Positions 23,095 through 54,212 of a DNA stretch of 64,000 nucleotides are shown here, piece by piece. Under the pieces are notes generated by a model. It searched no databases and was not told the origin of the DNA. It saw only the letters and a list, made by a program, of their open reading frames with translations. Positions within the stretch are counted from its first letter, which is position 1. The number at the start of each line of letters is the position of its first letter. The position numbers were made by a program, and so were the translations under genes. This DNA is from an uncultured virus (IMG/VR IMGVR_UViG_3300025922_000001) (taxonomy: Duplodnaviria > Heunggongvirae > Uroviricota > Caudoviricetes): the IMG/VR virus record IMGVR_UViG_3300025922_000001; one strand, given 5' to 3'.

Positions 23095-24273
23095 TTAGTC
23101 ACCCTTCACATTGAGAATCTGGTGAAGCGTGTGCTTGATGGTGACAAGATCAATCGAGTCGGCCATCACGACGTCGATGTCCTTGTACGCACCGGGGATT
23201 TCATCGACGAACGCTGCACTGTCGCGGTACTCGATGCCCTTCATTGCTTCACGCAGGTCGTCATGCGTGAACATCTTTCGCGCAGTGGAACGCGAGAAGT
23301 TGCGCCCAGCGCCATGAGGTGAAGAGTCAAGGGACATGTAGTTACCCTTGCCCTGGACCACATACGATGCTGTCCCCATGGAACCAGGGATGAGACCCAT
23401 CTTTCCCGCGGTGGCATCGATGGCGCCCTTGCGCGACAGCCACACCTGCTTGCCGAAATGCTTCGCGGATGTGGTGTAGTTATGATGGCAGTTGATGGTC
23501 TCTTGCACCTCGATTGATTCGCCTGACCACTCCTCGACGCACAGCATGAGACGATCCATCATTTCTTCGCGATTGAACCACGCAAACTCCTGGGCCCATC
23601 GCATTTCACGGATGTACGCCCAGAACTCCTTATCACCTTCGACGAGGTATGCAAGATCCGGGTTGGGTAGGTTGATCCAACGCTTCTCACACTGCTGTGC
23701 CGCAATCTTGATGTGTCGCTGCGCGATCTTGTTGCCAACACCACGTGAGCCCGAGTGGAGAAAGAGCCACACGCGATCCATTTCGTCGATGGTGATCTCG
23801 ATGAAGTGATTGCCACCACCGAGTGTGCCGAGCTGAAGCTTCCAATTCGATGCATATGCGTCTGGATCGAACTCAGCTGACTCGAGAGCCTTCATCTCGA
23901 GGATGTCCGTGCGTAGCTTGGCGGTGTTGGTGAGTTGCGTGTTGTACTTACCGGCTGAGGTCGGGATGGTCGCTTCGATCAGTTCGCGAAGCGCCGTAAG
24001 AGACTTCTCGGATTCCGTGAAGTCATGTTTGGTGAATTGTGTACGCACTGCGATCATGCCGCAGCCGATATCCACGCCGACCGCCGCGGGCATGATGGCA
24101 CCGAGAGTTGGGATAACACTGCCGACGGTGCTTCCACGCCCAAGATGCGCATCAGGCATGAGAGCGACGTGTGGAAAGATGAACGGCATCGTTGAAGTCT
24201 GCTCGGCCTGCTTGCGTGTCTGGTCTTCGAGAATGGACGCGAAGTTGACGAGCTTATCGTTGATCTGTTCCAC
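23095..24273 (-). CDS. rtcB: RtcB RNA ligase
   Basis: MPDAHLG, VGVDIGCG, GTLGGGNHFIE, HSGSRG, HHNY, RKGA, PGSMG, HGAGR, DEIPGAYKDI. Confidence 0.97.
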   Translation of the reverse strand: MEQINDKLVNFASILEDQTRKQAEQTSTMPFIFPHVALMPDAHLGRGSTVGSVIPTLGAIMPAAVGVDIGCGMIAVRTQFTKHDFTESEKSLTALRELIEATIPTSAGKYNTQLTNTAKLRTDILEMKALESAEFDPDAYASNWKLQLGTLGGGNHFIEITIDEMDRVWLFLHSGSRGVGNKIAQRHIKIAAQQCEKRWINLPNPDLAYLVEGDKEFWAYIREMRWAQEFAWFNREEMMDRLMLCVEEWSGESIEVQETINCHHNYTTSAKHFGKQVWLSRKGAIDATAGKMGLIPGSMGTASYVVQGKGNYMSLDSSPHGAGRNFSRSTARKMFTHDDLREAMKGIEYRDSAAFVDEIPGAYKDIDVVMADSIDLVTIKHTLHQILNVKGD

Positions 24274-36702: not shown

Positions 36703-36739
36703 GTTTACATAATCACACATGTGTGATACGATTAGTTTA
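36703..36739 (+). promoter_or_regulatory. repeated early-type promoter with ATCAC-N6-GTGAT palindrome
   Basis: GTTTACA-taATCACacatgtGTGA-TACGAT. Confidence 0.75.
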
Positions 36740-37083
36740 CGCACAACAACTACACAGACCCTGGAGCCTCACATGAAGGAGAACACTTCCGTCACGGTCC
36801 CCGGAACGACCGTGAAGATCGCGATCATGCAGACGATCGAGGGCGGGTGGAAGGTCACTCGCACCCAGCAGTTCGGCATCGCACGACGAGTTGATGTCAC
36901 GTTCCCCGCCAACTCACGGGAAGCAGCGAAGGTGTTCGCCGACGTCTGCTGGACCAACGCAGTGGATGCTCGTAACGAGCAGATTGCACGTGCGGACACG
37001 GACGCGTACGCTGGTTTTCACCGCGCTCAAGCACGCAATTCGTTCATCATCGAAGTACGTTTCGACGATTAATCACGTTGCCT

Positions 37084-37120
37084 GTTTACACGAGTGCAGG
37101 ATCCTGTTAGATTTATCATA
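37084..37120 (+). promoter_or_regulatory. repeated early-type promoter
   Basis: GTTTACA-N17-TAGATT with TG extension. Confidence 0.75.
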
Positions 37121-37155
37121 TCACCACGAACCACCCCGGATCCAAGGAGAGACTC

Positions 37156-37422
37156 ATGGCGATCGCCACCACGACCCGCTTCGTTCCCAAGAAGACCGGC
37201 GCCGGCGATTTCATCTGGGTGGGCGTCGACAGCAAGTCGTACGCGCTGGTCGGGGTCGGCACCACGAGCCGGGTCCAGATCGACAGCCGTCGTGAGATGA
37301 GGGTTTCGAAGAGCTCGTTCGGCAAGGGCTGGGACTTGATCATCGACGGCGAGGTGTTCGACACGTACCGCCTGAAGGTTGACGCCCAGTGGGACGGCAT
37401 CGAGTACATCACCGCCCCCTGA
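37156..37422 (+). CDS. small early-region hypothetical protein
   Basis: Promoter plus AAGGAGAG RBS. Confidence 0.75.
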   Translation: MAIATTTRFVPKKTGAGDFIWVGVDSKSYALVGVGTTSRVQIDSRREMRVSKSSFGKGWDLIIDGEVFDTYRLKVDAQWDGIEYITAP

Positions 37423-37474
37423 TCTTTACCGCATCACTTCACACATCACGCACAATCGATCTTAGGAGAGCACC

Positions 37475-37741
37475 ATGGCCAAGTACGCCGTCCAGGTTTT
37501 CGTCAACCGCAAGTACATCACCATCATGGAGAGCGCGAAGGCGACCGCCGGCCACCTCTCGAACGTGATGGACAAGTTCATCGCGTTCAACCGCACGGGT
37601 GACACCAAGTTCATCGCGACTGGTGTCGCGATCGAGTCGCTCGCTGACCGCGCCACCCGCCTCATCCGCATCCCGGCCGACGGTGTCAAGCCGATCGTTC
37701 TTCGCAAGGGCCGCACCACGGCGGAGAAGATCGCCGCGTAG
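37475..37741 (+). CDS. small early-region hypothetical protein
   Basis: TTAGGAGAGC RBS, high GC3. Confidence 0.75.
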   Translation: MAKYAVQVFVNRKYITIMESAKATAGHLSNVMDKFIAFNRTGDTKFIATGVAIESLADRATRLIRIPADGVKPIVLRKGRTTAEKIAA

Positions 37742-37799
37742 TTCGCTTGACAGCCCGTGCGTGCGCTCGCAGATCGGCGCACGGGCACTCATATTGCTT

Positions 37800-37836
37800 G
37801 TTTACACCGAGTGCGTGATGTGATAGATTTGTCTTA
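37800..37836 (+). promoter_or_regulatory. repeated early-type promoter
   Basis: GTTTACA-N17-TAGATT-tGTCTTA. Confidence 0.75.
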
Positions 37837-38146
37837 GCACCACGAAGGCCCCAGGAACTTAGGAGAGTATGATGCTATACGAGTACAAGCTTACGTTTTC
37901 GAAAGAGCGCAACGCTTTTGTGGATGAGACGGCGACGATCACCATCAATTCGACCATTGACCCCGCGACTCTCGTTCTCCGCGGTGAGTACACCTTGGGC
38001 GATTACGAGTACGTGCAGGGGAAGCTGGGTGAGCTCGAAGCACTTGCTCGCTCTCACTACGATGACATCATCGGGCTGCACGACTTCACGTCCGTTGAGT
38101 GCCCTGACGGCACGGTCGTCGAGCCGAGCTGATCATCACATTGCCT

Positions 38147-38183
38147 GTTTACATCATCACACGATCCTGTTAGATTTGTCTTA
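38147..38183 (+). promoter_or_regulatory. repeated early-type promoter heading the hammerhead 1-3 transcript
   Basis: GTTTACA-N17-TAGATT-tGTCTTA. Confidence 0.75.
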
Positions 38184-38426
38184 ACACCGAAAACGACGTA
38201 GGAGAGCATGATGCTGAAGACGATGCAGGTTGGCACGCACGGCGCGTTCTCGTTTGACGAGAAGATTTACAACGCGATGATCAAGCTGCCTCGTCCGACG
38301 CTGTACGCGACCGTGAAGAACATCTACGATGGCACGGGCGTCACCGGTCTCGCGACCCTCAAGAAGGCTGAGCTTGCCGCGATCGTGTCGGACGTCGCGA
38401 CCGCCATCGCGTAGCGTTACTACCCA

Positions 38427-38486
38427 GGACGAAACCCACGGCCGAGAGGTAGCGGGTCTGCGGGTGATGCCCGCACTGATGAGTCC
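38427..38486 (+). ncRNA. hammerhead ribozyme 1 (type II), cleavage after C38458
   Basis: GGAC-GAAA-CCC...GGG-TC / TGCGGG-tgatg-CCCGCA / CTGATGA-GTCC. Confidence 0.92.
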
Positions 38487-38503
38487 GATGTAAGGAGAGC
38501 AAG

Positions 38504-38650
38504 ATGATTCCTGAGAACGTGCTGACCCTGCCTGCGGCACTGGGACTACACAGTCCGAAGAAGAAGTGTCCTGACTGCGGTGGCTCGGGCGTCAGCCCCG
38601 ATGGCGACGAGTGTCAGTACTGCTCGGGTCAAGGCTGGACGCACCACTAG
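38504..38650 (+). CDS. 48-aa Zn-finger peptide flanked by hammerheads
   Basis: AGGAGAGC RBS; CPDCGGSG...CQYCSGQG. Confidence 0.75.
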   Translation: MIPENVLTLPAALGLHSPKKKCPDCGGSGVSPDGDECQYCSGQGWTHH

Positions 38651-38719
38651 CTATGATGAAACACCCACGCCGGGAGGCGTTGGTGTCCACCGGTAAAACC
38701 GGTGCTGATGAGTCCATAG
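38651..38719 (+). ncRNA. hammerhead ribozyme 2 (type II), cleavage after C38687
   Basis: CTATGAT-GAAA-CACC...GGTG-TC / CACCGG-taaaa-CCGGTG / CTGATGA-GTCCATAG. Confidence 0.85.
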
Positions 38720-38736
38720 GAATTTAGGAGAGCAAG

Positions 38737-38850
38737 ATGCTTCCCAAGAGTATGATGAAGACCGGCGGCAAGGAAGACGAGGGTACGGCCGACGCCCGCA
38801 GGGAGCTCGAGAAGATGATCGAGGCGGAAGAGAAGAAGCAGGGCCAGTAG
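38737..38850 (+). CDS. 37-aa charged peptide flanked by hammerheads
   Basis: TTTAGGAGAGC RBS; TAG stop overlaps next ribozyme. Confidence 0.7.
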   Translation: MLPKSMMKTGGKEDEGTADARRELEKMIEAEEKKQGQ

Positions 38851-38911
38851 GACGAAACGCGCACGCTGGGAAGCGTCCGCGTCCACGGGTAAAGCCCGTG
38901 CTGATGAGTCC
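38850..38911 (+). ncRNA. hammerhead ribozyme 3 (type II), cleavage after C38883
   Basis: GGAC-GAAA-CGCG...CGCG-TC / CACGGG-taaag-CCCGTG / CTGATGA-GTCC. Confidence 0.92.
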
Positions 38912-39641
38912 AGGGAGAACGCATGAGTGATCACAATGCAAAGCAGGCCATCCCATCCTTGCTTCAGGCGGCGATGTACGTGTCGCCGACAGGCACCGAG
39001 CAGGCAGCGTTTGGCGCGCTGGTCAACAAGATGGAGGGTGCGGGAGAGCCGTCGACCGTCATCGCGCTCGCACTTGCTGACGCGATCAGCGACGGTGTCC
39101 GGGCGGGCAACTGGCCGAAGGTCGATGGCTGATGGTCGACAAGCCTGCTCCGAAGGAATCGCTCCGCGTCGCGACCAACCTTCTACTGCGCTCAGCGCTT
39201 CTGATTGCACCCGACGCGGCATCGCGCGACTTTCTGACGGGTATTGTTACTGCCGGACGGAAGCTAGCTCCGAGGGTGTCTGAGGCAGATGAGCCTAGCA
39301 TCATTCGATCTCTTGTCGTTGCACTGGACCAGGGTGTCACACACAGGAAGTGGCAACGGTGACGGGGCTGATGGGTAACATCATCTGGACCGTGCTATTC
39401 GTTGGCTCGAGTGTGGGCATCATGATCGCACTCGTACGACGCGCACGGAGGCGATGATGGCGAAGATGTTAAGTCGTGACCAGCTGCTTCTCTGGATCGG
39501 TGAGGATCCTCTTGGCCTGCGGGCCAACCTCGCTGCGTGGGCTGAACAGGCTGTCTCAGACATCCACGCGAACGTCGAACCGGGGTCCGAGCAGTTCTAC
39601 TCCTTGGTGCTGGCGGAGGTTCTCAGAAAGTGACTGACGTC

Positions 39642-39679
39642 GTTGTACACAATCACGTTAACGTGATACTGTAGTCTTA
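39642..39679 (+). promoter_or_regulatory. repeated early-type promoter with ATCAC-N6-GTGAT palindrome
   Basis: TTGTACA-caATCACgttaacGTGA-TACTGT-AGTCTTA. Confidence 0.75.
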
Positions 39680-39721
39680 GCACCGGAAAACAGCCCGAGT
39701 GCAGGACACAAGGAGAGAATC

Positions 39722-39892
39722 ATGCGCGAGCGCTACGTGATTTACGTTCACACGAGCCCCCACTTCGAGCCCACTGAGCTGTTCGTCTTCGCTGACAGCC
39801 CGGATGATGCGCTTGACACCGTGACGCACATGGTCAAGCAGCTAGGCGGCGACATCGGCAAGGCGCATGATGTGACGGTTAACGTCGACTAG
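39722..39892 (+). CDS. 56-aa hypothetical protein
   Basis: AGGAGAG RBS; stop overlaps hammerhead 4. Confidence 0.7.
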   Translation: MRERYVIYVHTSPHFEPTELFVFADSPDDALDTVTHMVKQLGGDIGKAHDVTVNVD

Positions 39893-39953
39893 GACGAAAC
39901 TGCATTGCCGGGAGGCGACGCGGTCCGCGGCTAACTGCCGCGCTGATGAGTCC
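39892..39953 (+). ncRNA. hammerhead ribozyme 4 (type II), cleavage after C39925
   Basis: GGAC-GAAA-CTGC...GCGG-TC / CGCGGC-taact-GCCGCG / CTGATGA-GTCC. Confidence 0.92.
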
Positions 39954-39970
39954 AGGGAATCAAGGAGAGC

Positions 39971-40147
39971 ATGATGCCTACGACGAAGTATGTTCTTCTG
40001 GTTGTGCGTGAGGACAACACGCAGCATGAGATTTCTGCGTGGGGTGTTGATGGGAATGACGCGGTTAACGTTCTTAAGTCAGTGATCGCATCAGCGGGTG
40101 GAGATGCAGGTATGGTGCTCATCACCGTCATTGATGAAGATTACTAG
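39971..40147 (+). CDS. 58-aa hypothetical protein flanked by hammerheads
   Basis: AAGGAGAGC RBS; stop overlaps hammerhead 5. Confidence 0.7.
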   Translation: MMPTTKYVLLVVREDNTQHEISAWGVDGNDAVNVLKSVIASAGGDAGMVLITVIDEDY

Positions 40148-40208
40148 GACGAAACTACACCACCGTGAGGTGACGTAGTCCGTGCGTAACGCGCACGCTG
40201 ATGAGTCC
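40147..40208 (+). ncRNA. hammerhead ribozyme 5 (type II), cleavage after C40180
   Basis: GGAC-GAAA-CTAC...GTAG-TC / CGTGCG-taacg-CGCACG / CTGATGA-GTCC. Confidence 0.92.
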
Positions 40209-40227
40209 AGGAATTTAGGAGAGCACG

Positions 40228-40362
40228 ATGCTGAGCAAGATCATCGAACTGATCCTCCGCCCCGTCGCACCGGGCAACAGTGGTGAGCGTCGCTGCCCCG
40301 AGTGTAGCGGCGTGAACGGGAACCACAAGGACGACTGCTCGTTCAACCCGAAGAACTGGTGA
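40228..40362 (+). CDS. 44-aa Cys/His peptide
   Basis: TTTAGGAGAGC RBS; CPEC.....H...C. Confidence 0.65.
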   Translation: MLSKIIELILRPVAPGNSGERRCPECSGVNGNHKDDCSFNPKNW

Positions 40363-40378
40363 CGTAGATCCACGCGTG

Positions 40379-40417
40379 AAGGCCTCGGTCCTCCTTCCCG
40401 GAGGGCCGGGGCCTTTG
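40379..40417 (+). terminator. intrinsic terminator
   Basis: AAGGCCTCGGTCCTCC-ttccc-GGAGGGCCGGGGCCTTTG. Confidence 0.65.
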
Positions 40418-40433
40418 TGATATAGTCGACCGC

Positions 40434-41024
40434 GTGGGAACAAACGGGTATCAGCGAGCGACTGACGTCTCGTACGGATCAGATAGTGTCATCCTTGAGG
40501 TCGGTGTTGAACGCGACTCGGTGGGAGATGGCTCCACAACGTTTCTCTCGCGGGTAGGTCCGCCGGTGCACGTCATCGACGTGGAGCCGACACAGGTGGA
40601 GCGTGCGAGACAGATTCCTAACGTGACAGCATATCTTGGTGGTGCTGAGCATGTGCTTGAATACTGGGAACTGCCCATCGGCTTTGCATGGCTTGACGGG
40701 CATGACTGGCCTTACGAGCACGCAACCGAGGGCATGTGGGACGCCCAGGAGCGAGAGTATCTCGCACGTGGGCAGGCGTATTCGCGTGAAGCAAGCCGCG
40801 CATCGCATCTCACCATTGCGAAGCTTGTCGAGCCGTGGATCATCCCAGGTGGCATCATCGCATGTGATGACACGTGGGTGCTGCCATCGGTGCTTGACCC
40901 CACCCCCGGACCTGGGTGGAATGGCAAGTGTGGTGCTGCTGTGCCTTACCTGCTCGATCACGGGTTCAAGATTCTTGAGCAGGGTGACATCTACTTCGGA
41001 CGTGTCATTCTTCAACGAGAGTAA
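40434..41024 (+). CDS. class I SAM-dependent methyltransferase-like protein
   Basis: VILEVG, VIDVE, FAWLDG, PGGIIACDD, GK. Confidence 0.6.
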   Translation: MGTNGYQRATDVSYGSDSVILEVGVERDSVGDGSTTFLSRVGPPVHVIDVEPTQVERARQIPNVTAYLGGAEHVLEYWELPIGFAWLDGHDWPYEHATEGMWDAQEREYLARGQAYSREASRASHLTIAKLVEPWIIPGGIIACDDTWVLPSVLDPTPGPGWNGKCGAAVPYLLDHGFKILEQGDIYFGRVILQRE

Positions 41025-42064
41025 GGATGCATGATGGAAGATCAGTGCAACGACGCAACATGCGACATTCGTGGTGAGCACCCGGTGCACACACCTGAGA
41101 CTCGCTCCACGTCATGGTACAACAACCCAGCGCGCTTCTTTAAGCGCATGCCAGGTGGTGGTACCGTGTATGTACAGCTAACCTAGACAACCAGACCCGT
41201 GTGTGGTATGATTGTCTTGAGCGACCCGGTGTCCCCTCTGGACCGCCACGGGCCCGGGTCCCCGAACTTGCGGAACCTAGGAGAGCGTGATGGCGTATTT
41301 TGTGTATAAGCGTAGTGATGGCTACGTAGGCGTGGTCAATTCGAGCGAGCAGCTCGCGCCGGATGAAAAGCCTAAGCGTTTGCGCAATCGCACGATCGAG
41401 GATATTCACATCACGTTTACGGTGCTGCTTCAGACTGACGATTGGGATGAGGCAGTCCTGCTTCTTCAACACGAGCGTGGTGTCATCGACGTCATCGTCG
41501 ATACGAAGCCGCCGGCTGACCCGGATGAAGTGAGGCGACGTACGATTGATGACATTGCCGTTCGACTCGCCGCAATCGAGCGTGTGTTGATGCAGCTTGA
41601 CGCAGAGATCTCGGAGTGCCACGGGTATGCGAGTCCGGCGCAGCTGATGGTTGAGTTGGCTGGCGACTGCGTGAAGAAGGCCATGCGAGCGAATGGGAAG
41701 GAGAGTAAGTGATGGACGAGCTGATCAGCGAATTCGCTGCGAAGCTGCGCGAGATCTACAAGAAGCAGACCGCGGGTGACTTCACATTTGAGGGTGTGCT
41801 CGCTGAATTCGCACGACGAGAGTCAGAACTCGTCATCGCTGAGCGAATCAAGAACTTGGAGAAAGCGCACTGATGCGCAAGGCTTTCGTTATCATTGCAC
41901 TCGCACTTGCGTTGTGCGCGTGCGAACGTCCGGTGAAAACTCCTACGCCTAAGCCAAGTGTCGTCATCGTTCCTACCGAAGTCGACACGCGGTGTGAGGA
42001 AGATGAACCATGCTGGGTGTGTTCGGCAGCCGACGATCGCTGCACATCACGTAGCTTCTGACAC

Positions 42065-42101: not shown

Positions 42102-43584
42102 TCACCGAACGACACGAGCACTAGGAGAGCATGATGCAGGCACTCACCCTGGACGTTTGCTTCGGGCCCGAGGAAGAGGTGACCGACGTGGTTGACGCGC
42201 TGGTACACGAGACTGATGTGACGGCCGACTTCACGGGCGTTCACGTGGCCGGTGGCTGGCCCGAGATCAAGTTCACCGGCACGCAGGAGGACCTGATCAT
42301 CGTGGCCAACCGCTACGCTCTCGACACGGGTGACGCGAACGAAATCATCACGCGCATCACGTCGGCCTAGCGCGCAACACGCTCCCCTCGCCGTCACGCA
42401 TTCGTGCGTGGCGGCTTGTGGGAGTAGAAGGACTTTCGTTCGTGACTTAGGAGAGCAACATGTCCACGTACCGGTATAACGTCACGTTCCGCAAGGACAC
42501 CAACCCGGCGTTCGAAACGCTTGTGCCGACTGACCACCCGGCAAACCCGGCCGACATCGATGAGCATGCCAACGCGATCGTTGATTTTGCGCGTGCGCTC
42601 GTCGCGGCGAACCAGCCAGAGATCAAGCTTGACGGGTACTCGGCGTACTGCATCACGCGCAATGGAAGGACGATTTGGAGGTTCTGGTGAAGAACACGTC
42701 CCCGTACGTTCTCGTGTTTGAGAACGACTACAGCAACATCTTCTCATTGGTGATGAAGGTCGACTTCGAGAAGATGCCGTGGGACATCGACGACGGGTTT
42801 ACTGCGTTCGTCGCGTACGCGTACGACCGTGCCGCCGACATGAATATTGACCTGAGTGACTACACGCTCAAGAGCATCGCATACGGCGGGATGGTCATCA
42901 TTTCGTTCGACTAGATCACGCTTTCCTGATACAATAGTCTTAACACAACGACTTGATCGTTAGGAGAGCACGATGAACACGTACACGCTTGTTTGGCGTC
43001 ACGACTTCATTTCCGCGGTACGCATCACGGTTGACATCGACTCGGATGATGTTCCTTTGGCCGTCATGTTGGATGCGACTACCATCATGAGCGAGGCCGA
43101 CGATTTCATCTTCGGTTCCGAGCTTGATATGCGCGATTACACGCTCGTGGAGATCAAGTTTGGCGGCCTGCCCATCAAGCAATTCGCGTGATTTCACGAT
43201 GATGGGGTGCGCCTGTTGCACCCCATCATTTAGTGTGATACAATAAACATATCAACACGAATACCACAGGAACCCAGGAGAGCATCATGCCGAAGGCGCC
43301 CGTTACCCACTTCATCGTTTCGTTCGTTCGCCAGAACGACATCAACACGCTCATCACGCTTCCCGTCGCGTACGAATGCGAGTGGACCGAGACCGAAGAG
43401 TACGCGGAGATCATCATCGAGTGTGCGTACGCGGTTGCCGCGACGCGTGGGACCGATCTCGACAAGCACGAAGCATTCATGATCTCGCACGAGCACGGTG
43501 ACTTTCGCTTCAGCCGTTGAGTGAGGGTGGCTGATGTCGCTCTCATCACCGAATGAAATGCCCGTGGTAGGATACTCGTTAACT

Positions 43585-43639
43585 GGTCGAAACGCCTGCG
43601 TGCGGGCGTCGCCGGGAAAGAGACCGGCCCGAAGAGACC
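43585..43639 (+). ncRNA. variant hammerhead ribozyme (core CCGAAGA, U4C), putative cleavage after C43610
   Basis: GGTC-GAAA-CGCC...GGCG-TC / GCCGG-gaaagaga-CCGGC / CCGAAGA-GACC; precedes AGGAGAGC RBS. Confidence 0.7.
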
Positions 43640-44679
43640 CCTAGGAATCGAGGAGAGCGTGTTCGAACGAAAGGTCAATGTCCGGCAGCGTGAACTGGCT
43701 AAGAGCATGGTCGTGAAGCACGATGGTGCGTGGGTTCGCATCGAGCACATCGACCCGGTGATGCCAGGCTCAAATCAGCGCAAGGCCACGTGCACGTTAC
43801 GGCATCAGATGCGCTCGGGCGCATTCACCGCGTGGTTCGTCGAGGGCGAGCACAAGGTGGTGGCAAGCACTCTCCCACTGGACTTCGCGATCAAGCCAAG
43901 CCCGGTACCGGTCAAGCACGAACAGGTCCAGAGAGGAGTGCACAACGTCGTCAACGGCGAGGTGAACGGCCCGCTGATTCAGGCAGGCTCCATCGACGGG
44001 CAAACTGTCACCGACTTCTTCAAAGATAAGTGAGGTACACGCTGTGAAGAGGGTTCTTTTCATCGTCTGCTGCGTCGTGGGCGGGCTCTTCTTGATCGAG
44101 ATCGCGATTCCCGGACACTTCGCACTGCTCGAAGCGTACTTCACCGGCGTCGGTAACCTCATCGGTGTTCGCGTCGGCAGCTAGGTACCCCAGCACCTCC
44201 TCCTGATTGCCTCGCCCGAAGCAGCGGCAACTGCTTCGGCCGGGGCTTTAGGCGGTTGAGAGGAGGTCTCAGATGCCCGCTCAGGGGAGACTGAAGCCGG
44301 TTTGGAGATGGTTGGCAGTTCGACTAGCCGACCTGGAGGTGCAGCGAATCAAGATTGACCTTGGCTTGAACACGACCATGTGGGACGCCGAGATTCCGCC
44401 GAGAATCGTCGCCGACGCGCAGGAGCAGTGGGAGGCAGTCCGTGATTTGCCCTGATCATGATCGTCGAGCAGCGATGAGTGACGAAGAGTTTTGGGATGA
44501 GGTGCTTGACGTTTCGCTTGAGTTTGAAGGGCCGATGATCGAGCCCGAAGACGAGATCGTTGAAAAGCTTTCACTCACGGGCTCATCATGCGTTCAGTGC
44601 GGCTCCACTGGACCCTGCGCATACGACGCTGAGGGACGTCCCCTCATTCACGCAGATTCACAGGAAGTAGGATAGTAGG

Positions 44680-50510: not shown

Positions 50511-50548
50511 GTTTGCATTAGTCACAGTAGCCTGATACTGTAGTCTTA
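50511..50548 (+). promoter_or_regulatory. repeated early-type promoter heading the second hammerhead-rich transcript
   Basis: GTTTGCA...TGA-TACTGT-AGTCTTA. Confidence 0.75.
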
Positions 50549-50869: not shown

Positions 50870-50919
50870 GGGCGAAACGCCGTGAGGCGTCCAGCGGTTA
50901 GGCCGCTGCTGATGAGCCC
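50870..50919 (+). ncRNA. hammerhead ribozyme 6 (type II), cleavage after C50891
   Basis: GGGC-GAAA-CGCC-gtga-GGCG-TC / CAGCGG-ttagg-CCGCTG / CTGATGA-GCCC. Confidence 0.92.
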
Positions 50920-51129
50920 ACGTGAGGAGAATATCATGGGGATGATGGCAAGCGAGCGCAACCGAGGCGTTCTCAACAAGGACAACCCGTGGGACGACGA
51001 CGGCTTCTCGAGCTACCGTCGCTTCAAGAAGCGCGGTGGTTCTGGCTTGAGTGGTAAGCGTCCCCTCCGACGCGCCATTCGCGCGAAGGAGAAGACGCTC
51101 TGGTTCCGGGACGAGTGAGATTACTTATA

Positions 51130-51167
51130 GGGCGAAACACCATGAGGTGTCCGCTGCTAACGAGCCT
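51130..51167 (+). ncRNA. degenerate hammerhead (G5A core, stem I collapsed)
   Basis: GGGC-GAAA-CACC-atga-GGTG-TC / cgctg / CTAACGA-GCCT. Confidence 0.65.
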
Positions 51168-51182
51168 GGGAAGTAGGAGAGC

Positions 51183-51665
51183 ATGAAGAACGATGTGCAC
51201 GTGCGGGCCGTTGACCCGCGACGCACCGAAATCAGCTGTGGTGACTGGAAAGCCATCATCGTCAAGCGAGTGCATGACACTGATCGTCACTGGAACTCGA
51301 TGACTCGAGTATATGGTGCCATCGCTACGTTCGCACCTGATCTCGAAGAAAAGATCTACGAGAACGCATGTAAGCCTGCGTGGGGCGACGGTGACGGCTT
51401 CACCGAAGACGAGCGCGACGCGCACATGAAGGCATACCGAGCGCTCAAGGCGAAGGCGCTGAAGGACGTGAAGTTGGCGCTCATCGAGCCGATCGCACTC
51501 CTTCACGCGTACGGGCTTGGCCGACTTGGCATCGACCCGCCAACCATGCACTTCTCGTCGAAGGCCGGCTGCTCGATGTGCGCGTGTAGCCCCGGCCACA
51601 TCTTGAGCACTCGCTGGACCCTCGTCGGTTCGCCTGTGGATGTCTGGTTTGAACTGATCAAGTGA
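51183..51665 (+). CDS. hypothetical phage protein
   Basis: AGGAGAGC RBS; FS.KAGCSMCACSPG motif. Confidence 0.7.
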   Translation: MKNDVHVRAVDPRRTEISCGDWKAIIVKRVHDTDRHWNSMTRVYGAIATFAPDLEEKIYENACKPAWGDGDGFTEDERDAHMKAYRALKAKALKDVKLALIEPIALLHAYGLGRLGIDPPTMHFSSKAGCSMCACSPGHILSTRWTLVGSPVDVWFELIK

Positions 51666-51770
51666 ACACTAGGAGAGCACAATGATTCATGGTGGATGTG
51701 GTTGTGAATGCTGTAGTGGCGGCTTCTGTGGTGGCTGCGGTCACGCGGGATGTGGTGGTCGATAACTGAA

Positions 51771-51820
51771 GGCCGAAACGTCGGGAGACGTCGCAGCGTG
51801 ACGCGCTGCCTGATGAGGCC
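51771..51820 (+). ncRNA. hammerhead ribozyme 7 (type II), cleavage after C51792
   Basis: GGCC-GAAA-CGTC-ggga-GACG-TC / GCAGCG-tgacg-CGCTGC / CTGATGA-GGCC. Confidence 0.92.
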
Positions 51821-51838
51821 AAGAGTGAGGATAGACCG

Positions 51839-52294
51839 ATGACCGATGTTGCGGAAACCTTCATCGAAATCCTGAAGAAAGCGCGTGTGGAGTTGACCAC
51901 GGGCTTGGGTAAGGACTTGCCTGCGGGCGATGGGTTCGAGACGAGGGAAGCGCTCGAAGCACGCGTTTCCGAGATCGAGACGGAGATCGTGGTCCCGTTG
52001 CGTGCACTCATCGATGATCTCACGGAATACGTCCACGAGGTGAGTGGCAAGTGCGATGATGTTGCCACGGCGGTGGAAAGTGCTGACACTGCGTCCGATG
52101 AGTTCGACACAGCGAACGAAGCACGTGAAGAATTCGACGGCGATGACGAGAGCGACGAATTCGAAGAGCTTGACAACGAGGTCACCCGCACCGAACGCGC
52201 GATGGAAGAGGCGGACGAGGAATTGTCCGGCTATCGTGACGAGCTCATCGACGCCATCGCACAGCTCGTCGAGTTGATTGGCGGGGGCGAGTAA
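51839..52294 (+). CDS. highly acidic coiled-coil protein
   Basis: Asp/Glu-rich helical ORF directly after hammerhead 7. Confidence 0.65.
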   Translation: MTDVAETFIEILKKARVELTTGLGKDLPAGDGFETREALEARVSEIETEIVVPLRALIDDLTEYVHEVSGKCDDVATAVESADTASDEFDTANEAREEFDGDDESDEFEELDNEVTRTERAMEEADEELSGYRDELIDAIAQLVELIGGGE

Positions 52295-53023
52295 TGGGCA
52301 CCACGCAGATCGGCACGGTTGATGTGCTCTTCCCTCGCACGTACAGCCTCGACCCCACTTCGACGAGTAACGACGGCGCCGCTGTTCTCGTACAGCCGGG
52401 TTCGTACCCTGTGTACAGCGACGGATGGTCGCACTACTGGCTGATGACCGGTAAAATCAATCACGCCGGAATGCACCGGCTCGGTGATGGTGCATTCACT
52501 CATCACGCCGGTGACTGGATTGATGAAACGTCGCCTGATGTTACGTTCATGTCGGGTGTCTTCGGTCCAGATGAATTCGCCGACTTTCTCGATAACGACC
52601 CGGTGTGCCAGCCTGGTGCTGCGCAACGCCTCGTGTTTCACGTGGAGCGACCCGATGAAGAGAAGAACGAGGAGGGAGAGTGAAGGGCACCCACATCAGA
52701 AAGATCCTCGCCCGACACGAGCGCGTGGTCTCGAAGTTCGGCGATGAGGCACGGGTGCGACGCATGCTCTTCCGCGCGGTGCCGAACATCCTCGCGCGTG
52801 ATGCATCAAACCGGGCAAACGATCTCATCCGCTTGCTTAACGATGTGCCGGCGCTCATCGAGGATATCTACGAGTTGCGCGCCGAGCGCGCGAGGCTCAG
52901 CCGAGAGCTTCGTGAGCTACGTGCACAGGTGGACAACACGATCATCGAAGATGATGGCGTGGAAGTCGAGCGCGAGCCTGGCATCGGCGATGTTCTCCAA
53001 GCAATGGGTTACCTCGACTGAAA

Positions 53024-53073
53024 GGACGAAACCCCGGGAGGGGTCGGCACGTGATGCGTGTCCTGACGAGTCC
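53024..53073 (+). ncRNA. hammerhead ribozyme 8 (type II), cleavage after C53045
   Basis: GGAC-GAAA-CCCC-ggga-GGGG-TC / GGCACG-tgatg-CGTGTC / CTGACGA-GTCC. Confidence 0.92.
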
Positions 53074-53575
53074 GGAGGAGAGCACCATGTCCGTGAAGGC
53101 CACATTGATCGTGCAGACAAATGATCACGCAGAGGGGAGCGTGCGGATGGAGCGCACCATTGAACGCGGTGGTGATAACTATCGCTTCTACCCGAGTGAG
53201 GCCGTGGCCGCAGCCATTGATCTCGCCGAGTGGGCGAGCGACCAGCTGACGAGGCTTGCCGGCGGCAGGGCCAACACGCTCTCTGACGTGGGTGTGAGGA
53301 CACTAGCCAACGATGAAGAGCTGCTGACGCTGCGCTTGGTCGAGCAGTCATACAGGCGCCTCACGACCGGGGACAGCGTGTACGTCAGCGCTGAACAGGT
53401 CAAGGAGTGGCGTCGGCGCGACGCTCGTCTGACGGCCATGGAAGCCGCGGGCGTGGACAACTGGGAAGGAATGGACCACGTCGTCTTCTCGGAGGACTGA
53501 GGCGTTGTTTGCATAACGACTTGGGTCCTGATAAGATTACCTTGTAAGCGAAACCAAAACAAGGAGTGGTATTCG

Positions 53576-53809
53576 GTGAAGGTTTTCCTCACTGGACTCG
53601 CGGTCATTGCCGCGCTGGCGGGCGTTACTGCCTGCGAGGGTACTCGTACGCACGTCACTGACAAGAAGGGCGCAGTCAACGAAGCGCTTTGCTCGGGTAG
53701 CACGCCGTACATCATGTTCACCAAGACGGGCGACGCGGGCGAGATGGTCGTCTGCGTGACCCAAGCAACGTACGACAAGTACAAGATCGGGGACGTGTAC
53801 AGGGGCTGA
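53576..53809 (+). CDS. small lipoprotein
   Basis: VTAC lipobox; CV....YDKYKIGD.Y. Confidence 0.65.
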   Translation: MKVFLTGLAVIAALAGVTACEGTRTHVTDKKGAVNEALCSGSTPYIMFTKTGDAGEMVVCVTQATYDKYKIGDVYRG

Positions 53810-53901
53810 TGAAGTGGGTCGCCGTCACATTCGTGGCGGCGACCCATTCACGTGAAGTTGCACTAGCATCTCGATCCGTGCTTGACAAGCTAGGAGAGTA
53901 A

Positions 53902-54156
53902 GTGCACTTACGAGTTATGTACACCGCCGTCATCGTCGCGATGGCTCTTGCCGGTTGCGCGAAAGCGGTGACAGGCGTCGTGATCGAAAAGCATGACGCG
54001 CGCTCGGGCGTTCCGCAAGTGTTCAACTGTGCGAAGACCGAGTGGCTGCTTGTGATCGATCAGGGCGAGCGCACCAAGGCGTCCGATCGGTTCAAGAAGA
54101 AGTGCGTGTCGTTCACCGTCGCAACACAGTACGAGATCGGCAAGAAGTACCCGTAA
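53902..54156 (+). CDS. small lipoprotein (paralogue of 53576-53809)
   Basis: LAGC lipobox; CV.......YEIG..YP. Confidence 0.65.
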   Translation: MHLRVMYTAVIVAMALAGCAKAVTGVVIEKHDARSGVPQVFNCAKTEWLLVIDQGERTKASDRFKKKCVSFTVATQYEIGKKYP

Positions 54157-54162
54157 ATTACA

Positions 54163-54212
54163 GTCCGAAACGCCGGGAGGCGTCCGTGAGTAAGTCTCAC
54201 GCTGATGAGGAC
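54163..54212 (+). ncRNA. hammerhead ribozyme 9 (type II), cleavage after C54184
   Basis: GTCC-GAAA-CGCC-ggga-GGCG-TC / CGTGAG-taagt-CTCACG / CTGATGA-GGAC. Confidence 0.92.

Follow-up and report, generated by a model that had tools for sequence, protein, structure and literature searches.

The window, a 64,000-nucleotide (nt) stretch of an uncultured viral genome (IMG/VR record IMGVR_UViG_3300025922_000001, Caudoviricetes), carries hammerhead ribozyme motifs in the gaps between small phage genes, as well as a gene for the RNA ligase RtcB. We find that the motif is genuine and beyond chance, and that ordinary, locally folding type II hammerheads probably split the phage's transcripts into linear messenger RNAs (mRNAs) of one or a few genes. 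The original prediction had gone further, proposing that tandem hammerheads with interchangeable stem II arms could excise single-gene mRNAs and that RtcB could then help to close these into circles. As far as the sequence can tell, the excision half of that proposal holds, with genuine hammerheads flanking single small genes. Circularization through RtcB found no positive support, and tests of the arms, of gene co-occurrence, and of relatives went against it.

Nine type II hammerheads between small genes

Five of the hammerheads lie at 38427-40208 on the plus strand (array A), and all five share one layout. In order, a 4-nt 3′ arm is followed by GAAAC, the stem III hairpin, and GTC, and then by the stem I hairpin (6 bp with a 5-nt loop), CTGATGA, and the 4-nt 5′ arm GTCC. 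Downstream of the 5′ arm come a generic leader, a ribosome-binding site (RBS; AGGAGAG), and ATG. This permutation is that of a type II hammerhead, in which stem II is open and loops cap stems I and III. A hammerhead descriptor that enumerated every split on both strands of the 64-kb window counted nine intact type II hammerheads on the plus strand and none on the minus strand (HH1 to HH9, Table 1). The copies are spaced 229, 196, 1042, and 255 nt apart in array A and 901, 1253, and 1139 nt apart in array B (50870-54212).

The conserved core, CTGA(T/C)GA plus GAAA (C3 U4 G5 A6 N7 G8 A9; G12 A13 A14), is present in all nine copies, as are the GUC cleavage triplet and the A15.1-U16.1 pair. The G10.1-C11.1 pair is found in eight, with HH2 having G-U there. 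Matches to CTGATGAGTCC with at most one mismatch numbered eight against 1.67 expected, a count that none of 100 shuffles attained. When a covariance model was built from the nine copies, they scored 65-84 bits against it (E 1e-18 to 1e-24). Across these copies, pairing holds in 99.3% of pair cells, and double changes occur at 14 of 18 pairs; no measure was matched by any of 500 shuffles, and slid controls were 27-45% paired. Adding two relatives, for 20 sequences in total, gave 99.4% paired cells and double changes at 13 of 17 pairs (0/500 shuffles equal), in an alignment that was fitted to the model and hence leans towards structure. Folded alone, seven of the nine copies have the hammerhead junction as their minimum-energy structure, and stem II forms with a probability (p) of at least 0.95 in eight. 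The U and A of loop I are invariant in all nine, and inspection by eye found no complementarity between loop I and the tail of the kind that makes the published type II pseudoknot. In array A, stem III has a 3x3 internal loop.

All nine hammerheads lie on the coding strand and are strictly intergenic, with the RBS ~5-20 nt beyond the 5′ arm. In HH3, HH4, and HH5, the stop codon of the upstream gene overlaps the 3′ arm; at HH3, the final base of the TAG stop of a 37-aa open reading frame (ORF) is the first base of the arm. The original prediction had named three fragments, 38459-38687 (229 nt), 38688-38883 (196 nt), and 39926-40180 (255 nt), and the C17 positions of the descriptor reproduce their boundaries exactly. 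Each has one AGGAGAG-type RBS and one tiny ORF (48, 37, and 58 aa), as had been stated, and the sequence of the first does end in TGAT-GAAA. That list omitted the 1042-nt fragment 38884-39925 and the whole of array B. The cassette units hold unrelated ORFs, not repeated copies of one element, and for most of them no function emerged from searches of Pfam and PHROGs.

In the reading that we favor, the hammerheads would act in the gaps of rightward transcripts, a gap running from one small gene's stop codon to the RBS that follows. Every copy would fold from ~50-70 contiguous nt and cut after C17. Cleavage, whether co- or post-transcriptional, would thereby turn long transcripts into linear single-gene or few-gene mRNAs, which would begin with a 5′-OH and the stem I hairpin just before the RBS and would have the stem III hairpin at the 3′ end, along with a 2′,3′-cyclic phosphate. 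With ends of this kind, neighboring early or host-takeover genes should be uncoupled from one another in stability and translation, in the manner of natural ribozyme insulators. As DNA, the same hammerhead repeats would also be sites of recombination, where the phage gains or loses whole gene-plus-hammerhead periods.

Several points weigh against this reading. Rfam reported no hammerhead in the window at its gathering score, and at E ≤ 1, HH1 was the sole match (RF02276 at 26.1 bits vs. a cut-off of 37, E 0.49); that cut-off is a curated model threshold rather than a biochemical definition, and the RF02276 consensus differs from the window copies in its stem II, which is 2 bp long, and in a 3′ tail, which they lack. 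The G-U at 10.1-11.1 may slow HH2. Moreover, in equilibrium folding of long RNAs, the local stem II was often out-competed (p 0.00-0.48 in nascent RNA and 0.00-0.75 in a 1.86-kb precursor). These folding models omit tertiary contacts and kinetics, and because their stem II probabilities were so erratic, we did not consider them able to tell local from cross pairing. What the sequence shows is the motif with its core, topology, covariation, and placement, along with the cassette indels described below; cleavage inside cells and its consequences for the mRNAs are inferred from published work on such arrays, and any benefit that cutting may bring through stability or insulation is likewise presumed. 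In the same vein, a passage of a 2019 review (PMC6765202) still calls the purpose of bacterial and phage hammerheads open.

Table 1. Hammerheads, hammerhead-like elements, and associated genes in the window
Feature	Coordinates	Strand	Details
HH1, type II hammerhead	38427..38486	+	Cuts after C 38458; stem II GGAC/GUCC; 79.5 bits
HH2	38651..38719	+	Cuts after C 38687; stem II UGAU/GUCC plus private CUAU:AUAG extension; 74.2 bits
HH3	38850..38911	+	Cuts after C 38883; stem II GGAC/GUCC; 83.5 bits
HH4	39892..39953	+	Cuts after C 39925; stem II GGAC/GUCC; 81.8 bits
HH5	40147..40208	+	Cuts after C 40180; stem II GGAC/GUCC; 81.8 bits
HH6	50870..50919	+	Cuts after C 50891; stem II GGGC/GCCC; short stem III; 68.2 bits
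HH7	51771..51820	+	Cuts after C 51792; stem II GGCC/GGCC; 67.6 bits
HH8, core CUGACGA	53024..53073	+	Cuts after C 53045; stem II GGAC/GUCC; 65.2 bits
HH9	54163..54212	+	Cuts after C 54184; flipped stem II GUCC/GGAC; 68.8 bits
Relic half-hammerhead	51126..51171	+	GGGC-GAAAC-stem III-GTC, without CUGAUGA; 29.6 bits
Hammerhead-like element, variant core CCGAAGA (U4>C, U7>A)	43581..43643	+	Stem II GGUC/GACC; 25.6 bits; outside the count of nine
48-aa ORF, two CXXCXGXG-like zinc-finger motifs	38504..38650	+	Sole ORF of fragment 38459-38687; not in G061
37-aa ORF	38737..38850	+	Sole ORF of fragment 38688-38883
58-aa ORF	39971..40147	+	Sole ORF of fragment 39926-40180; TAG stop overlaps HH5 3′ arm; cassette not in G061
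Multi-gene fragment, 1042 nt, HH3 to HH4	38884..39925	+
ORFs of the 1042-nt fragment	38923-39132, 39132-39362, 39350-39457, 39454-39633, 39722-39892	+
44-aa ORF, Cys-rich (CPEC...C)	40228..40362	+	After HH5
137-aa ORF	53087..53500	+	Directly after HH8; C-terminus of T7 gp5.9 RecBCD-inhibitor family; PF25708 38.1 bits (cut-off 24.5); phrog_6234
RtcB RNA ligase gene, 392 aa	23095..24273	-	PF01139 E 2.1e-115; phrog_1075 E 7e-145

Relatives and turnover of the arrays

The relative G061 (L289; 93,054 bp, 98% complete) is syntenic with the window and holds orthologous hammerheads with compensated stems, comprising seven canonical copies and the variant-core element of Table 1. The complete relative G007 holds two such orthologues. 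The G061 orthologue of HH7 has a different stem I that is fully compensated. Compensatory changes of this kind indicate selection on RNA structure rather than on DNA identity. Array size varies as 2, 8, and 9+2 across the three relatives. The nearest record of all, G001, is a 36-kb fragment (38% complete) in which RtcB is present and a hammerhead was not found; it probably covers the other arm and is therefore uninformative on hammerheads.

Two places in array A differ by whole periods. G061 has a single hammerhead at the place of HH1 plus HH2 and another at that of HH4 plus HH5, and at either place both window copies align to the one in G061, so that G061 is without exactly the periods 38459-38687 and 39926-40180. 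Between two of its hammerheads, it keeps a 38-aa homologue of the 37-aa ORF. The first G061 hammerhead is a mosaic, with stem III like that of HH1 (1 mismatch) and stem I nearer to that of HH2 (3 vs. 6 mismatches of 17). The fourth is also mosaic: the ORF upstream is the orthologue of the one before HH4, and its stem I (1 mismatch of 17) and flank follow HH5. In the window, a duplicate of the leader and of the first ~12 codons of the 37-aa gene accompanies the HH1 copy. Together, the mosaics and the duplicated leader suggest tandem duplication or unequal recombination between hammerhead DNA repeats, for which an RNA intermediate is not needed. Insertion of an RNA cassette at the cleavage site was also considered for the G061 indels and was dropped, as the duplicated leader and codons fit the DNA-level process, as do the mosaics.

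This turnover is what might be expected if the hammerheads persisted mainly as repeats for the duplication, deletion, and exchange of small genes, with RNA cleavage being secondary. The loss of exactly one period at each of two places, the mosaic copies, and the variation in array size all fit such a history. So do the cassette ORFs of array A, which had no tblastn match in G007, and a comparison within other phages, in which stem I is more alike between neighboring hammerheads whose arms are the same than between others (identity 0.72 vs. 0.52). However, DNA repeats do not need a catalytic core, yet the core is kept in all nine copies, and the compensated stems likewise speak for selection on RNA. 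We therefore regard a primarily DNA-based role as unlikely. It is compatible with transcript cleavage, and we treat the gain and loss of cassettes as a side-effect of hammerheads that probably cut RNA.

Fragment ends, stem II arms, and RtcB

A further alternative keeps the circles of the original prediction. The arms of an excised fragment would pair across its ORF to form a nicked chimeric hammerhead, and the reverse reaction or RtcB would then seal it, giving circular or reshuffled mRNAs. By sequence, the geometry is correct. Four of the five copies in array A share stem II GGAC/GUCC while stems I and III have diverged, and RtcB joins exactly such ends (PMC8782182). Still, we consider circles of this kind very unlikely, given how the arms, the fragment ends, and the ligase gene behave.

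The arms are interchangeable only within array A. Taking the closing combination as the 5′ arm of one hammerhead with the 3′ arm of the next, we counted 3, 4, 4, and 4 contiguous pairs at successive junctions of array A. In array B, the counts were 1, 1, and 1, so that closing fails at all three junctions. Array B holds four different arm pairs, and in each copy stem II covaries with its local partner. HH2 points the same way, as its weakened 3′ arm, UGAU, coincides with a private 4-bp extension formed by CUAU upstream and AUAG downstream, with AUAG being an insertion relative to both HH1 and the G061 orthologue. This suggests compensation under selection for local pairing.

For comparison with other phages, we took 134 loci from a pattern that fixed only the first stem II pair, which yielded 147 distinct type II hammerheads, among which 54 pairs were adjacent and on the same strand. 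Of the 147, 115 had a complete (4/4) local stem II. The closing combination was complete in 32 of the 54 adjacent pairs, vs. 28 of 54 for the reverse, non-closing combination used as a control, and at spacings below 400 nt the figures were 15/23 and 14/23. Among pairs with different arms, closing was complete in 8/25 vs. 4/25 for the control, and random pairs stood at 19%. With no direction-specific signal, and with same-arm neighbors sharing more of stem I as described above, shared arms look like the outcome of tandem-copy ancestry (paralogy).

Whether the two ends of a fragment can rebuild a hammerhead, as had been claimed for the three named fragments, depended on the fragment. Folding with ViennaRNA gave the closing helix a probability of 0.34 in 38688-38883 and 0.96 in 39926-40180, making closure feasible, and 0.92 in the multi-gene fragment 38884-39925. 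By contrast, 38459-38687 cannot close (p 0.00). In a control for the three named fragments, the interior was shuffled 60 times with the ends kept, and the medians were 0.00 (38459-38687), 0.51 (38688-38883), and 0.06 (39926-40180). Fragment 38688-38883 thus fell below its shuffled median, with 38 of 60 shuffles equaling or exceeding the observed value. Fragment 39926-40180 was matched by only 3 of 60 shuffles, helped by extension of the pairing beyond 4 bp, and it represents one nominal hit among three tests. Folded as circles, the two closable named fragments gave closing helix probabilities of 0.17 and 0.35. A circle would also contain a complete, foldable hammerhead, since the pairing that aligns the ends rebuilds the active ribozyme, and it would therefore be expected to reopen. 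In passages of Perreault 2011 (PMC3088659), circular and spliced products are raised, and neither is reported as detected (“data not shown”).

The ligase gene itself is as predicted, with RtcB encoded at 23095-24273 (Table 1), and the lineage keeps it, since RtcB is present in the window, G061 (87-88% identity), and G007 (73%). Nevertheless, the co-occurrence of hammerhead arrays and rtcB that the original prediction had put forward as a check did not emerge across viral genomes. RtcB was absent from all seven other hammerhead-bearing viral records with 9, 11, 3, 3, 1, 8, and 8 copies by the covariance model. Among another 50 records, all 30 kb or longer and picked only for a hammerhead pattern match, one had RtcB (1/25 among those at least 90% complete), giving 1/57 overall. 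In the opposite direction, 50 viral records of at least 40 kb (37 of them at least 90% complete) with RtcB (44-67% identical) yielded no type II hammerhead (0/50) by the covariance model at E ≤ 0.001, a model that would miss type I/III hammerheads and other ribozyme classes. The same model did find hammerheads in unrelated phages and is thus able to detect such copies. The family of RtcB in phages is a large one (phrog_1075, with at least 578 viral loci), and G007 retains the gene yet has just two hammerheads, 12 kb apart. Genetic linkage of ribozyme and RtcB across genomes was thus not found, and given how rarely the two overlap across viral records, their co-occurrence here looks like lineage history. 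In G007, rtcB (G007:C1:14418-15584) has moved to the other arm, where it sits between the two hammerheads and shares their strand. The location of the gene thus varies within the lineage.

Phage RtcB is usually read as an RNA repair enzyme. In the window, it is encoded on the strand opposite to the hammerheads, in the replication arm and with tRNA genes nearby. RtcB here most plausibly serves tRNA or other RNA repair, a reading that agrees with its location among genes for tRNAs and nucleotide metabolism. Searches of Pfam and PHROGs assigned no function to its neighbors.

The circle and turnover ideas can be joined in a single proposal, in which excised ends re-pair through GUCC/GGAC into a nicked hammerhead, a fraction is sealed, either by the ribozyme running in reverse or by the RtcB that the lineage conserves, into circular, exonuclease-proof mRNAs for small host-takeover proteins, and the same units are gained and lost within the lineage as cassettes. 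This combination strikes us as highly improbable. We find it similarly hard to credit that some or all copies are inactive, or serve as RBS-masking or protein-binding hairpins without self-cleavage in vivo; the relic, the core variant, the G-U of HH2, and the Rfam scores would fit this, but every core nucleotide is kept in the nine copies while the stems vary by compensation, and the decay visible in the relic implies that the intact copies are under selection.

The 3′ arm of the relic still matches the 5′ arm of HH6 upstream. As for the variant element at 43581-43643, its CCGAAGA core is kept in G061 (L289:6346-6406; 40.7 bits), where the stem III loop differs. This may be either a conserved fossil or a core variant that is active and removes the triphosphate leader. 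The element sits a few bases past a promoter-like site.

Genome context and known systems

The window resembles a tailed-phage genome arm, and the phage is of actinobacterial type. Its minus strand encodes PolA, an SNF2 helicase, a PD-(D/E)XK nuclease, thymidylate synthase, a C5 methylase, RtcB, and four tRNA-like genes. PrimPol/D5 opens the plus-strand arm, and the hammerheads all lie in this rightward arm among small genes without assigned function. Compared with the enzymes of Micrococcus, Arthrobacter, and Microbacterium phages, the DNA polymerase is no more than 36.5% identical, and a blastn search of 37000-41500 against cultured phages matched no relative. One tRNA-like gene, at 1598-1668 on the minus strand, was called by ARAGORN with an abnormal 2-nt anticodon; it adjoins tRNA-Glu and tRNA-Met and was not listed by the Rfam tRNA model.

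The promoter-like motif GATACTGTAGTCTTA occurs at six sites (2765 on the minus strand and 35780, 39665, 42087, 42928, and 50534 on the plus strand), a number that none of 100 shuffles attained. The site at 39665-39679 lies inside array A, within the 1042-nt fragment, and that at 50534 lies ahead of array B. A second pattern, TTTACA-N17-TAGATT, has four sites in 36704-38176, one ahead of each small gene upstream of array A. The flank past the 5′ arm is a generic phage leader, AGGAA-N2-5-AGGAGAG, which occurs at eight sites, five of them without an adjacent hammerhead or hammerhead-like element. Beyond the last gene of array A (40228-40362) is a terminator-like hairpin with a T-rich tail (40396-40411).

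Among the cassette genes, the 48-aa ORF scored 24.9 bits against PF00684 (DnaJ zinc-finger family), under the cut-off of 32.7. We also considered the ORFs at 39722-39892 (56 aa) and 39971-40147 (58 aa) as possible paralogues and rejected this, as they are only weakly alike (E 8e-4, 25% over 28 aa). A 27-aa Cys/Gly peptide ORF lies beside the hammerheads at 51682-51765 on the plus strand. The gp5.9-like ORF at 53087-53500 places a host-takeover gene behind a ribozyme, which recalls the hammerhead-flanked ardA described in part of Perreault 2011 (PMC3088659).

Clustered hammerheads that flank single phage genes are a layout already known since 2011, going by passages of that paper (PMC3088659). 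There, clusters from prophages cleaved themselves while being transcribed in vitro, one triple arrangement was also cut in E. coli, and the processing of long transcripts into single-gene mRNAs was proposed. The passages describe several same-strand hammerheads, type II included, lying close together between phage genes of varying identity, and in the window, too, clustered phage hammerheads flank single genes or short blocks on one strand. Compared with the arrays in those passages, the window differs in having nine intact copies in two arrays, in an uncultured phage with an RtcB gene. It also differs in the stop codon that overlaps stem II in three copies, in the 3x3 stem III loop of array A, and in being missed by the Rfam type II model.

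A second close case is Desulfovibrio vulgaris, where three type II hammerheads cleave in vivo according to cyPhyRNA-seq (PMC8782182). Phage-like genes lie close to these, and one small gene is flanked by two copies spaced ~310 nt from each other. Cleavage was seen directly in vivo there, whereas here it is predicted. Viroids, satellites, and retrozymes (PMC6765202; Cervera & de la Pena 2020, PMC7229834) resemble the window in that a two-ribozyme unit bears a 5′-OH and a 2′,3′-cyclic phosphate that a tRNA-type ligase can seal. Those units are repeated and mostly non-coding, have type I/III hammerheads, and replicate or retrotranspose, whereas the window units are different protein-coding genes. 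No unit in the arrays was found to be a repeated copy of one element, as a viroid-like or retrozyme unit would be.

Viroids hide their hammerheads in a rod-like fold, and engineered ribozyme-plus-RtcB circles shed their ribozymes. The window layout would also yield RtcB substrates like those of the engineered design, but its fragments retain both ribozyme halves, and inside a circle the window hammerhead would remain foldable, unlike those of viroid or retrozyme circles. In ribozyme insulators such as RiboJ, a cut just upstream of the RBS leaves a hairpin-capped 5′ end. The window has the same layout, with a ribozyme cut predicted before the RBS and a hairpin-capped 5′ end.

A literature search for hammerheads with actinobacteriophage found no paper, and among papers on RtcB, hammerheads, phage, and circular RNA, none concerns phage arrays, judging by titles and the opening lines of abstracts. 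Against this background, the comparisons made here supply negative comparative evidence on RtcB-made circular phage mRNAs, since ligase and arrays do not travel together across ~100 viral records. If circles were nevertheless found, this DNA phage would be the first with a natural system of circular mRNAs. More broadly, the window is a rich natural test bed, with nine intact copies, a relic, and a conserved core variant in one genome. Its further assets are single small genes as excised units, a gp5.9-like gene behind a ribozyme, and a relative that differs by exactly two cassettes.

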